64,000 nucleotides of DNA from an uncultured Poribacteria bacterium (GCA_951813565.1 OX638351.1:320001-384000); one strand, 5' to 3'. Shown: positions 46,686 through 50,318, counted from the first letter of the stretch. The notes: generated from the sequence alone by a model not told the origin. Made by a program: numbers and translations.

Positions 46686-47444
46686 TCATTTTTCATCGTC
46701 CGTTAGGAACGTTTCGGGGTCATACCCGGCTGTATGCTCTTCAACAAAGTTGATTTCTGGGTATGATGCTTCCACACCATAGAAATAGATTTCTTCGGGT
46801 GTAAAATACCGGTCGTGGGTCCCAACGAGGGTCCTCGGAACACGAATGGTTCTGGGATTATCAGGGGGGGACCTGACCACATGTTTTTTCCACTTTACGT
46901 AAATGGTATCCGGATAGAGTGGATAGACTCTACCGTTACTGTCATCCAAGAAACCATTAATGAAATCGTGATCGCCTTGATTCCAGAGTTTTATCAAGAC
47001 GCGATAGATCATCTCGTGATCATGCATATCGCCTTTTTGATAATTCGGGTACCTATCATCGTCCCACAGGGGTGTCATCGGAAAACCCTCGGGGGTTTCT
47101 GGAAAATCAGCGGGGACTTTTTCCTCTGAACCCATATCGTCAGGTAAAAACGTATCCGCGAGGTCAAAGGTCTCGTTTTCCAACGCCTCTGTCTCCTCGA
47201 CCATCGTTTCTATGTCCGTGTTTTCTTCGGGCGTATTCACAACGCCTTCGGTTTGAAAATCAACAGGTGCGGTGCTTGTCGCCTGCTTGTTTTCGATCAA
47301 CGACACCGCTTGCGGTCTCTTTCCAAACTCGTTTTCAGTCGTGCGTTGGGCGTGCCAAATATATAGCAGGCTGCCCCCAACAACGATGACAAAGAAAGCG
47401 AGACCGGCTTGTATCAAACGACTGGAAAGTAAATTACGAAACAT
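46686..47444 (-). CDS. Membrane-anchored hypothetical protein, copy 1 of 3
   Basis: N-terminal TM, acidic linker, globular C-domain; GAGGTG RBS. Confidence 0.85.
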   Translation of the reverse strand: MFRNLLSSRLIQAGLAFFVIVVGGSLLYIWHAQRTTENEFGKRPQAVSLIENKQATSTAPVDFQTEGVVNTPEENTDIETMVEETEALENETFDLADTFLPDDMGSEEKVPADFPETPEGFPMTPLWDDDRYPNYQKGDMHDHEMIYRVLIKLWNQGDHDFINGFLDDSNGRVYPLYPDTIYVKWKKHVVRSPPDNPRTIRVPRTLVGTHDRYFTPEEIYFYGVEASYPEINFVEEHTAGYDPETFLTDDEK

Positions 47445-47500
47445 ATATATTATCACCTCTCTCTTGGGGTTGATGGAAAAATGCCTGTAAGCAATAGGTA

Positions 47501-47869
47501 GGTTTTAACCAAATAATGATGCAAAAACTGACGGGACCCCTCTAAACCGCCTTGCATCCTAACCAATGACAGGAATGATAACATATTTGGCAAACGGTTT
47601 CAACAAAAAATTGAACAATTTTTTGTTGAAACCTGCCCAGAAATCTGATACCTTTGACGAAATCAAAACACATCGCATCGAGCGTAATAATTGCCAGATG
47701 AGACACTCGTTCGGAAGTTCTAAGCGAAAGTCCATTATTGTTTCAAAAAGCCTTGAGATGGTCGACCTAACGATTGCTTTGTTTGCGAAGTTTCGGGTCA
47801 ATGGAAATGTGTTTGACATTGTAAATCTCGGGGCGGACAGTTTCCAAATATCATTAGTTAGTTAACACC
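47501..47869 (+). mobile_element. Internally deleted IS1-family element B
   Basis: Same IRs; retains the InsB-like C-terminus THRIERNNCQMRH...R.S...SKS. Confidence 0.78.
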
Positions 47870-47870
47870 T

Positions 47871-48629
47871 TCATTTTTCATCGTCCGTTAGGAACGTTTC
47901 GGGGTCATACCCGGCTGTATGCTTTTCAACAAAGTTGATTTCTGGGTATGATGCTTCCACACCATAGAAATAGAGTTCTTCGGGTGTAAAAAACCGGATG
48001 TGGGTCCCAACCATGCTCCCCGGAACACGAATGGTTCTGGGTTTATCAGGGGGGGACCTGACCACATGTTTTTTCCACTTTACGTAAATGGTATCCGGAT
48101 AGAGTGGATAGACTCTACCGTTACTGGTATCCCTGATACCAGTAATGAAATTGTGATCGCCTTGATTCCAGAGTTTTATCAAGACGCGATAGATCATCTC
48201 GTGACCAGGCATATCGCCTTTTTGATAATTCGGTAACGTATCATCGTCCCACAAGGGTGTCATCGGAAAACCCTCGGGGGTTTCTGGAAAATCAGCGGGG
48301 ACTTTTTCCTCTGAACCCATATCGTCAGGTAAAAACGTATCCGCGAGGTCAAAGGTCTCGTCTTCCAACGCCTCTGTCTCCTCGACCATCGTTTCTATGT
48401 CCGTGTTTTCTTTGGGCGTATTCACAACGCCTTCGGTTTGAAAATCAACAGGTGCGGTGCTTGTCGCCTGCTTGTTTTCGATCAACGACACCGCTTGCGG
48501 TCTCTTTCCAAACTCGTTTTCAGTCGTGCGTTGGGCGTGCCAAATATACAGCAGGCTGCCCCCAACAACGATGACAAAGAAAGCGAGACCGGCTTGTATC
48601 AAACGACTGGAAAGTAAATTACGAAACAT
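47871..48629 (-). CDS. Membrane-anchored hypothetical protein, copy 2 of 3
   Basis: Near-identical to copy 1 except for clustered C-domain changes. Confidence 0.85.
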   Translation of the reverse strand: MFRNLLSSRLIQAGLAFFVIVVGGSLLYIWHAQRTTENEFGKRPQAVSLIENKQATSTAPVDFQTEGVVNTPKENTDIETMVEETEALEDETFDLADTFLPDDMGSEEKVPADFPETPEGFPMTPLWDDDTLPNYQKGDMPGHEMIYRVLIKLWNQGDHNFITGIRDTSNGRVYPLYPDTIYVKWKKHVVRSPPDKPRTIRVPGSMVGTHIRFFTPEELYFYGVEASYPEINFVEKHTAGYDPETFLTDDEK

Positions 48630-48685
48630 ATATATTATCACTCCTCTCTTGGGGTTGATGGACAAATGCCTGTAAGCAATAGGTA

Positions 48686-49561
48686 GGTTTTAACCAAATA
48701 ACGTGAGTTTGATAAATCCCGTAGGGAATCAACACCGAATGCGCCTACGGCATTCGGTGGGGTAGAACGGAAATGGAGAATAAAAACAGACCGTAAAGAG
48801 AGGTTGTTGACCTATTTGAGGTCGATATTTCCAAAAAAATAAGTGAAACCCAACTCTTTAGGACTGTCAAGACGGTTGAATTGTTGGGTTTCGCTTCGCT
48901 CTACCCATAGGTGTCAACTTAAAAAAAATGCTGGATTTTCTCTTGTGGGAGGGAAACCTTGTCCGCTCGATTTTCTTCTTGTAGGAGCGAGCTCCAGCTC
49001 GCGACCGTTCGTAATATGTCGCGACCAGGAGGTCGCTCCTACAGGAAGATAAAACAGCGCACTTACAACGCGCACCTATCGTCATCTCATAAGTTGGGTA
49101 TTTAGCACGCGTAAATTTCTTTAAGTTTACACCTATGGGTTTCGCTTTGCTCTACCCAACGGACATCTATACTCATTCTAATTATCAAGCTCACGTTAAC
49201 CAAATAATGATGTAAAAACTGACGGGACCCCTCTAAACCGCCTTGCATCCTAACCAATGACAGGAATGATAACATATTTGGCAAACGGTTTCAACAAAAA
49301 ATTGAACAATTTTTTGTTGAAACCTGCCCAGAAATCTGATACCTTTGACGAAATCAAAACACATCGCATCGAGCGTAATAATTGCCAGATGAGACACTCG
49401 TTCGGAAGTTCTAAGCGAAAGTCCATTATTGTTTCAAAAAGCCTTGAGATGGTCGACCTAACGATTGCTTTGTTTGCGAAGTTTCGGGTCAATGGAAATG
49501 TGTTTGACATTGTAAATCTCGGGGGCGGACAGTTTCCAAATATCATTAGTTAGTTAACACC
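48686..49561 (+). mobile_element. Internally deleted IS1-family element C, left IR interrupted by a MITE
   Basis: Near-identical to element B apart from the insertion at 48701-49196. Confidence 0.78.
48701..49196. mobile_element. IS982-derived MITE with nested palindromic elements
   Basis: TIR acgtgagtttgataa / ttatcaagctcacgt matches the IS982 at 42591; duplication taaccaaata at 48691-48700 and 49197-49206. Confidence 0.85.
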
Positions 49562-49562
49562 T

Positions 49563-50318
49563 TCATTTTTCATCGTCCGTTAGGAACGTTTCGGGGTCAT
49601 ACCCGGCTGTATGCTTTTCAACAAAGTTGATTTCTGGGTATGATGCTTCCACACCATAGAAATAGAGTTCTTCGGGTGTAAAATACGGGTCGTGGGTCCC
49701 AACGACACCCCTCGGAACACGAATGGTTCTGCGATTATCAGGGGGCCCGACCGTCTGTTCTTTCCACCTTACGTAAAGGGTATCCGGATAGAGTGGATAG
49801 ACTCTACCATTATTGTAATCCAAGAAACCATTAATGAAATCGTGATCGCCTTGATTCCAGAGTTTTATCAAGACGCGATAGATCATCTCGTGATCATGCA
49901 TATCGCCTTTTTGATAATTCGGGAACATATCATCGTCCCACAAGGGTGTCATCGGAAAACCCTCGGGGGTTTCTGGAAAATCAGCGGGGACTTTTTCCTC
50001 TGAACCCATATCGTCAGGTAAAAACGTATCCGCGAGGTCAAAGGTCTCGTTTTCCAACGCCTCTGTCTCCTCGACCATCGTTTCTATGTCCGTGTTTTCT
50101 TCGGGCGTATTCACAACGCCTTCGGTTTGAAAATCAACAGGTGCGGTGCTTGTCGCCTGCTTGTTTTCGATCAACGACACCGCTTGCGGTCTCTTTCCAA
50201 ACTCGTTTTCAGTCGTGCGTTGGGCGTGCCAAATATACAGCAGGCTGCCCCCAACAACGATGACAAAGAAAGCGAGACCGGCTTGTATCAAACGACTGGA
50301 AAGTAAATTACGAAACAT
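49563..50318 (-). CDS. Membrane-anchored hypothetical protein, copy 3 of 3
   Basis: Near-identical to copies 1 and 2; one-codon deletion in the variable region. Confidence 0.85.
   Translation of the reverse strand: MFRNLLSSRLIQAGLAFFVIVVGGSLLYIWHAQRTTENEFGKRPQAVSLIENKQATSTAPVDFQTEGVVNTPEENTDIETMVEETEALENETFDLADTFLPDDMGSEEKVPADFPETPEGFPMTPLWDDDMFPNYQKGDMHDHEMIYRVLIKLWNQGDHDFINGFLDYNNGRVYPLYPDTLYVRWKEQTVGPPDNRRTIRVPRGVVGTHDPYFTPEELYFYGVEASYPEINFVEKHTAGYDPETFLTDDEK

Follow-up and report, generated by a model that had tools for sequence, protein, structure and literature searches.

Localised hot-spot diversification in a recently triplicated gene of an uncharacterised Poribacteria protein family

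We analysed a stretch of 64,000 nucleotides (nt) from an uncultured Poribacteria bacterium (G000:C1:320001-384000, hereafter the window), which is part of a genome assembled as a single contig of 5.43 Mb with 43% G+C. The window carries three neighbouring copies of a gene for a small protein, here called copies 1 to 3. All three open reading frames (ORFs) are intact in the ORF listing, lie in the same orientation on the minus strand and measure 256, 256 and 255 amino acids (aa), respectively. Homologues begin at the motif MFRNLL, four codons inside the ORF start, so that the genes most likely have the shorter extents given in Table 1 and encode proteins of 252, 252 and 251 aa; residue numbering nevertheless follows the 256-aa ORF throughout. 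Copy 1 matches the profile hidden Markov model (HMM) of its family with E = 1.3e-113, and the same HMM finds copies 2 and 3.

Each gene sits in a repeat unit that also includes 46 nt of upstream and about 400 nt of downstream sequence. The three junctions differ from one another in structure: units 1 and 2 abut directly, a dispersed element of about 500 nt lies between units 2 and 3, and the downstream segment of unit 1 carries a deletion. Between units 2 and 3, only 2 of the 367 nt of the downstream segment differ.

Table 1. Positions of the gene copies, their hot-spot segments, the repeat units and associated features, counted from the first letter of the window.
Feature	Position	Strand	Remarks
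Copy 1	46686..47444	-	252 aa from the ATG of MFRNLL; ORF 46686-47456, from an upstream GTG
Copy 2	47871..48629	-	252 aa; ORF 47871-48641, extendable to 48665 from an upstream TTG
Copy 3	49563..50318	-	251 aa, one codon fewer; ORF 49563-50330
Hot-spot segment, copy 1	46806..47057	-	codons 134-217
Hot-spot segment, copy 2	47991..48242	-	codons 134-217
Hot-spot segment, copy 3	49683..49931	-	one codon shorter
Repeat unit 1	46390..47502	-	46 nt upstream, gene, and downstream segment with internal deletion (alignment, flank BLAST)
Repeat unit 2	47501..48701	-	abuts unit 1; period 1185 nt
Repeat unit 3	49196..50376	-	downstream 367 nt 99.5% identical to those of unit 2
Dispersed repeat element, about 500 nt	48697..49200	.	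inserted between units 2 and 3
ORF with weak likeness to the IS1 transposase C-terminus	47566..47865	+	in unit 2; PF03400, E = 3e-5
IS1-like ORF, further occurrences	49257-49553 (unit 3); 46455-46649 (unit 1, shortened by the deletion)	+	
Promoter-like site (predicted)	47575..47603; also 46464-46492, 49266-49294	-	10/12 hexamer matches plus TG extension

Three other species of the genus (G015, G042 and G043) have just one copy at the syntenic locus, next to the same WD40 gene, and G020, a fourth related species, has one copy plus an N-terminal fragment; a close orthologue is present in only five of the 40 genomes of the genus. Moreover, a 3506-nt contig of sequencing run X12 joins position 46411 directly to 49214 and thus represents a one-copy, copy-3-like form. 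This contig comes from an RNA library and has a depth of 13; we did not count it as evidence of transcription, DNA carry-over being possible. As the four species and the X12 contig each show a single copy, we take the triplication to be recent. Among the copies, the synonymous divergence (dS) of the N-terminal half of the gene (N-half) is 0-0.023; in a separate calculation the copies gave 0-0.012 in the N-half and 0.02-0.05 in the C-terminal half (C-half).

The array was further compared with four sequencing runs, using Logan contigs rather than raw reads. In three DNA runs, each from a different study, every variant is represented by contigs of its own, and the depths are similar: in run X1 those of copies 1, 2 and 3 are 188, 143 and 165, and the three variants also occur together in X3 and X5. 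Several of these contigs are exact matches, for example those of X1 (49337-50371) and X3 (49337-49871) to copy 3; one of these runs may be the source sample. The similar depths also bear on a possible assembly artefact, in which three strain variants of a single-copy gene would have been strung together. Such an artefact would be in keeping with the single-copy forms of the relatives and with the short-read contigs, which stop at every repeat boundary so that none crosses a junction; however, the structural differences between the three junctions and the even representation of all variants in runs from three studies make it extremely improbable. Given the single-copy relatives, the co-occurring variants and the differing junctions, we take the array to be real and young.

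The differences among the three copies are few and strongly localised. The proteins of copies 2 and 3 are 93-94% identical to that of copy 1, pairwise identity of the gene DNA is 95.3-96.8%, and 39 bases vary (41 under an alternative gap placement), 17, 15 and 7 of them at codon positions 1, 2 and 3, respectively. Codons 134-217, which make up 252 of the 771 nt, hold 33 of the 39 variable bases and the remaining 519 nt hold six (binomial p = 3e-11). More specifically, the N-terminal 133 codons contain four variable bases and two amino-acid changes, both in copy 2, and minimum counts made without a tree give 34 non-synonymous against 3 synonymous changes across the 127 codons of the C-half. About 28 residues of the C-terminal domain, or head, differ among the copies; the anchor and stalk that precede it and the non-coding flanks are near-identical, and in the blocks between the variable patches even the third codon positions are the same in all three copies. 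Two or more bases change in 8 of the 32 variable codons. Copy 2 is the odd one out at 17 of the 39 variable bases and copy 3 at 13.

An earlier account of this DNA, made from its sequence alone (hereafter the sequence-only reading), had described a near-identical N-terminus followed by clustered differences in the C-domain. Our counts uphold this description, and every patch that it listed was found in copies 1/2/3: RY/TL/MF, HD/PG/HD, DFINGFLDDS/NFITGIRDTS/DFINGFLDYN, KKHVVRS/KKHVVRS/KEQTV-G, RTL/GSM/RGV and DRY/IRF/DPY. Its near-absence of silent changes is likewise borne out by the minimum of three in the C-half. Its figure of 36 variable sites has to be raised to the 39 or 41 given above, and its placing of most of them at codon positions 1 and 2 stands. 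The remark that most variable sites have an adenine in some copy is correct as a count (27 of 41) and fails as a distinctive feature, guanine being present at 25 of the same sites, cytosine at 18 and thymine at 15.

Codon analyses were performed on seven sequences only, namely the three copies and the four orthologues, because a scan of Joint Genome Institute (JGI) metagenomes for the DNA of further close relatives returned 60 pattern matches of which none was confirmed. For codons 134-217 the ratio of non-synonymous to synonymous substitution rates (dN/dS, or omega), calculated by the NG86 method, is 10.9, 2.1 and 3.2 in the three pairs of copies; the N-terminal 133 codons have 0-2 changes of either kind. 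Among the seven sequences the C-half ratio exceeds 1 in 19 of the 21 pairs (range 0.80-3.84), and that of the N-half lies between 0 and 1.7 on few changes. We then fitted the codon model GY94+F1X4 in IQ-TREE, with a likelihood-ratio test (LRT) against omega = 1. For the C-half this gave an omega of 3.12 among the three copies (p = 0.017) and 2.21 among all seven sequences (p = 0.0075), for the core 3.95 among the three copies (p = 0.0088), and for the N-half 0.71 (p = 0.50).

The same positions vary outside the array. In 17 close homologues, with the three copies excluded, mean entropy is 1.58 for the 28 head columns at which the copies disagree and 0.59 for the remaining 114 (p = 4e-9), and these hot-spot columns are also the variable ones among the four orthologues. 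Together with the codon models, this argues that diversifying (positive) selection acts on the hot spots throughout the young clade and not in this array alone. The sequence-only reading had proposed just such a diversifying family and had named dN/dS as a check; the C-domain came out above 1 and not at or below it, and its positive selection is upheld.

The copies are also mosaic. Along the gene the odd copy shifts from copy 2 (nt 408-515) to copy 3 (nt 518-602) and then alternates (nt 600-650), confirming that the mosaic pattern noted before is real. The states of the individual patches are common to related species and strains and to metagenome proteins, where they occur in other combinations: the TL/PG and NFITGIRDTS type of copy 2 reappears in proteins P0001 and P0005, its GSM in P0011 and P0014-16, and the R.KEQ.VG block of copy 3, with its one-codon deletion, in P0007, G043, G042 and more distant members. 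In the metagenome protein P0007 the head is 90% identical to that of copy 1 and the N-module (anchor and stalk) only 39%, so that whole modules are evidently exchanged between family members. Within the genome, tblastn and blastn searches found no donor copy elsewhere: at the DNA level the variable segment matches only the three genes, and the other 29 family ORFs have about 22-40% protein identity.

Near-identical flanks and N-halves beside diverged C-halves could also result from concerted evolution, whereby gene conversion would have homogenised the N-half and flanks of old paralogues and selection would have shielded the hot-spot patches. The somewhat higher dS of the C-half among the copies agrees with such a history. 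If the paralogues were old, however, one would not expect the four related species and the X12 contig to have just one copy, nor the synonymous sites between the hot spots to be almost all identical, with blocks between patches matching at third positions as well. We therefore regard concerted evolution as unlikely.

A different origin of the variation had been raised by the sequence-only reading, which held that adenine-directed mutagenesis in trans, of the kind carried out by diversity-generating retroelements (DGRs), was possible. A PF00078 search of the whole 5.43-Mb contig identified two reverse transcriptase (RT) genes. The first is Drt4 (NF041749, 479.5 bits against a cut-off of 450; genome positions 811737-813284). 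The second encodes a group-II-like RT of 465 aa in which a large insertion separates the finger from the palm motifs; its best PADLOC matches are CRISPR-associated RTs and it adjoins an array of about 4 kb with a period of 73-75 nt, so that this locus (genome positions 3990664-3996454) is probably an RT-associated CRISPR locus. This RT carries the motif QGSPLSP at the place where DGR enzymes have [ILV]GxxxSQ. The search thus found no RT of the DGR clade in the assembly. When the 300-nt variable segment of each copy was compared with the genome by blastn at word size 7 and E up to 10, no template repeat was found either, the next best match after the three genes being 27 nt long. In the core, 58 adenine columns are invariant, and 24 of the 37 variable columns have an A. 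With neither a DGR RT nor a template repeat, and with adenines that are mostly invariant, the DGR suggestion is rejected for anything encoded in the assembly. That the copies differ almost exclusively by amino-acid changes, concentrated at a few hot spots of the head, points to natural selection for variety, and not a retroelement mutator, as the probable source of the diversity.

Targeted mutagenesis in the wider sense, by a DGR acting in trans or by some other mechanism that rewrites the patches, draws on the extreme localisation of the changes, on the two or three adjacent changes seen in 8 of the 32 codons and on the frequency of adenine at the variable sites. It has to contend with the nature of the two RTs, with the lack of a fourth copy or template repeat of the 300-nt segment even at word size 7, with the many invariant adenines and with guanine being about as frequent as adenine where the copies vary. 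In addition, copy 3 is preserved without a single change in contigs of two studies, of which one may be the source sample. Taken together, this makes targeted mutagenesis very unlikely.

The protein is predicted to have a single membrane helix at its N-terminus, followed by an acidic, disordered linker of about 70 residues and a compact alpha/beta head of about 140 residues. In an AlphaFold2 model based on 113 homologues, the helix spans residues 13-44, the acidic region 45-112 is disordered with a predicted local distance difference test (pLDDT) score under 50, and the head begins at about residue 115. Folded alone, the head reaches a pLDDT of 90.6 and a predicted template modelling (pTM) score of 0.83, and is modelled as one long helix, a four-stranded antiparallel sheet and short helices. 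Residues P119, P122, W131, E148, R152, V153, K156, G161 and Y186 are near-invariant across the family. E148, R152 and K156 follow one another at four-residue spacing on the long helix and, from helix geometry, would share one face of it; hot spots 145 and 146 come just before them.

Two arginines precede the predicted helix, and in G020 (locus L005, G020:C1:987499-991263) a 278-aa ORF on the minus strand fuses the first roughly 100 residues of the family in frame to a WD40 protein. The fused part comprises the anchor and part of the stalk; the WD40 protein of the window (44503-45510) has a signal-peptide-like start of its own. The fusion in G020 can be described as a natural swap of targeting modules. 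Because of the arginines before the helix and of this anchor-stalk fusion to a WD40 protein, we infer that the head lies outside the cytoplasm. The surface location and ligand binding proposed by the sequence-only reading stay putative for a protein that has a single N-terminal membrane helix and in which no binding domain was recognised.

The protein has no match to a known family in Pfam, NCBIfam or PHROG, and a profile search of PDB sequences gave 0 matches at E <= 10. Structure comparisons were similarly negative: Foldseek against the PDB found 0 matches at E <= 1e-3 for the full model and for the head alone, BFVD 0 at E <= 1e-3, and the ESM Atlas no usable match. With VIA-align, the best of 48,161 chains matched the head alone at Z 2.8 (root-mean-square deviation 4.0, 70 residues), and a wide search with the full model matched the N-terminal helix only (Z <= 4.4). 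The absence of a structural match is no proof of a new fold. The family was seen only in Candidatus Poribacteria, with 816 clusters in public data (50% identity, E <= 1e-3), and numbers 32 ORFs in the present genome. It is present in 119 of the 151 genomes of the phylum and limited to three of the nine sampled taxonomic families (118 of 135 genomes in f1-f3, 0 of 15 in f4-f9); tandem arrays of it occur in other genomes too. Titles and abstract openings of the literature on selection, hypervariability or retroelements in Poribacteria contain no mention of the family, and as far as the literature at that level and the libraries searched show, neither the family nor its fold has been described before.

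Overall, we consider it probable that a single gene was triplicated in tandem not long ago and that the array now holds three alleles of a diversifying recognition domain, which probably lies outside the cytoplasm. The near-identical anchor, stalk and flanks that the copies share, the hot spots common to the clade and the patch states that are found elsewhere in other combinations make three alleles of one locus the most likely content of the array. Unequal exchange between short repeats would have turned a single-copy gene into three, a step that is well supported, as is the next one, that the hot spots of the head would already have been polymorphic in the population under diversifying selection. 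The copies may then have gained or kept different allelic states through homologous exchange with alleles of the population and through further substitutions. A genome carrying three specificities would have been favoured, and the copies kept side by side as useful. The head would bind, or would have to evade, a fast-changing partner, for example a phage protein, a host factor or a protein of a competitor.

Several observations weigh against this explanation. The domain-wide omega comes from seven sequences only, and recombination or multi-nucleotide changes such as those in the 8 of 32 codons mentioned above can raise such a value. By tree-free counts, the four orthologues alone give a ratio of 1.2-1.3, which is not significantly above neutrality (p = 0.37-0.39). 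The WD40 gene at 44503-45510 has a dN/dS of 0.67 against G020 (dS 0.058) and of 2.3 against G015 (dS 0.016), values so high that the whole island is evidently fast-evolving at the protein level and may evolve under weak constraint. As to structure, the hot spots are distributed over coil (13), strands (11, on both faces of the sheet) and helices (4). Recombination among the copies is not demonstrated either, since the order of the blocks is only weakly non-random in a runs test at the codon level (p = 0.10) and since, in a test of the pairwise homoplasy index (PHI) type, incompatibility between sites does not depend on their distance (p = 0.72). In this test 235 of the 630 informative site pairs are incompatible; without a dependence on distance, recurrent substitution at the hot spots is indistinguishable from recombination or very short exchange tracts. 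The gene conversion that the sequence-only reading assumed among the copies thus keeps the patch states shared in differing combinations in its favour, and has the PHI-type result and the lack of a donor in the genome against it.

The low ratio among the orthologues, the N-half omega of about 0.7 and the dN/dS of the neighbouring WD40 gene could together be taken to mean that redundant copies drift neutrally under relaxed constraint, with an omega near 1 and chance accounting for the rest. We consider this quite unlikely: all three ORFs are intact, the changes are limited to columns that vary in 17 other homologues with 114 others conserved, the LRT rejects omega = 1 for the C-half, and the clustering of the variable bases is highly significant. 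Also quite unlikely in our estimation is that the changes are written by a diversification mechanism independent of RT, or by very frequent micro-conversion from a population-wide pool of alleles, and that the family is a variable repertoire of receptors or shields. If so, this family of 816 clusters, restricted to Poribacteria, would serve the symbionts as such a repertoire against phages or against the recognition system of the sponge itself. Recent triplication of a gene whose head diversifies at hot spots remains the explanation that we favour.

The surroundings of the genes were examined in the window and around the other members of the family. The dispersed element of about 500 nt gives 367 BLAST high-scoring segment pairs genome-wide, including near-identical full copies at genome positions 3421309-3421810 (99.2%) and 4395273-4395777 (98.6%). 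An internal portion of about 240 nt recurs in a tandem repeat at 4532450-4533176, and in sponge metagenome contigs the element reaches depths of up to thousands. The IS1-like ORF in the downstream segment is 98-99 aa long and scores 24.7 bits, just over the cut-off of 24.1. On the minus strand of this segment each unit has a predicted promoter-like site, which could drive the next copy.

A Pfam scan of 25 neighbouring ORFs in the window showed no toxin or secretion domain. A wider set of 183 ORFs, taken from the 4 kb around each of the 32 family ORFs, was compared by clustering, with Pfam applied to the window neighbours only; it showed no toxin or secretion gene and no conserved partner gene, the commonest neighbour clusters having six members each. 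Recurring neighbours are STT3-like fragments, WD40 proteins and transposases. In the window, a DDE transposase gene (PF13612, E = 4e-68) lies at 42610-44423 beside a 275-aa ORF that matches only the N-terminal part of the STT3 oligosaccharyltransferase; genome-wide, 6 of the 32 family ORFs have a similar STT3-like fragment no more than 4 kb away. On the other side, positions 50430-63991 hold an array of at least six WD40 double-propeller genes (419-699 aa). It is interleaved with small cysteine-rich ORFs that have one hydrophobic helix (50430-50837 and 52931-53443) and with a candidate third ORF of this kind at 55738-56211. The cysteine-rich ORFs have no Pfam or PHROG match.

Poribacteria are uncultured, widespread symbionts of sponges, and it is to our knowledge poorly understood which of their proteins are exposed to phages, competitors or the host. 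The present family is large, confined to Poribacteria and, in this young clade, clearly marked by selection for amino-acid change at defined positions. It is thus a concrete candidate for a molecule on the front line of an arms race in the sponge symbiosis, and the three natural variants in one genome could be compared directly in experiments.

Several known systems share features with the array. The targets of DGRs, such as Mtd of Bordetella phage, TvpA of Treponema and LdtA of Legionella, likewise combine a short C-terminal variable segment, in which almost all changes are non-synonymous, with an invariant scaffold; the Poribacteria genes differ from them in lacking adenine specificity and, in the assembly, a DGR RT and a template repeat, and the head model gave no match in the PDB searches, be it to a C-type-lectin fold, an Ig-like fold or any other. 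Cassette-based antigenic variation, known from pilE/pilS of Neisseria, vlsE of Borrelia and msp2 of Anaplasma, also produces mosaic patches within an otherwise constant gene, whereas no silent partial donor cassettes were found in the Poribacteria genome, where DNA-level matches are limited to the three full genes. The orphan immunity genes of polymorphic toxin systems, as in the islands of type VI secretion system (T6SS) or contact-dependent inhibition (CDI) immunity genes, resemble the array as recent tandem sets of small proteins, here probably extracytoplasmic, that differ at probable contact residues and are associated with mobile elements. Here, however, the vicinity of the 32 family ORFs showed no toxin or secretion gene, with the Pfam scan covering the window neighbours, and immunity proteins do not typically have a long disordered stalk.

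Exposed multigene families that diversify under selection with recombination are found in other bacteria, for example bab/hop of Helicobacter pylori and opa of Neisseria. The Poribacteria family is unrelated to these, is anchored by an N-terminal helix and has no beta-barrel, and belongs to an uncultured sponge symbiont; its exposure, partner and recombination are putative. In other respects it is like them: tandem or dispersed paralogues share a conserved scaffold with a few hypervariable patches, omega exceeds 1 at the patches, and strains combine the patch states differently. Tandem paralogues that diversify at hot spots are thus a well-known phenomenon, of which the present locus is a real and cleanly localised instance in recently triplicated genes of an uncharacterised Poribacteria family.

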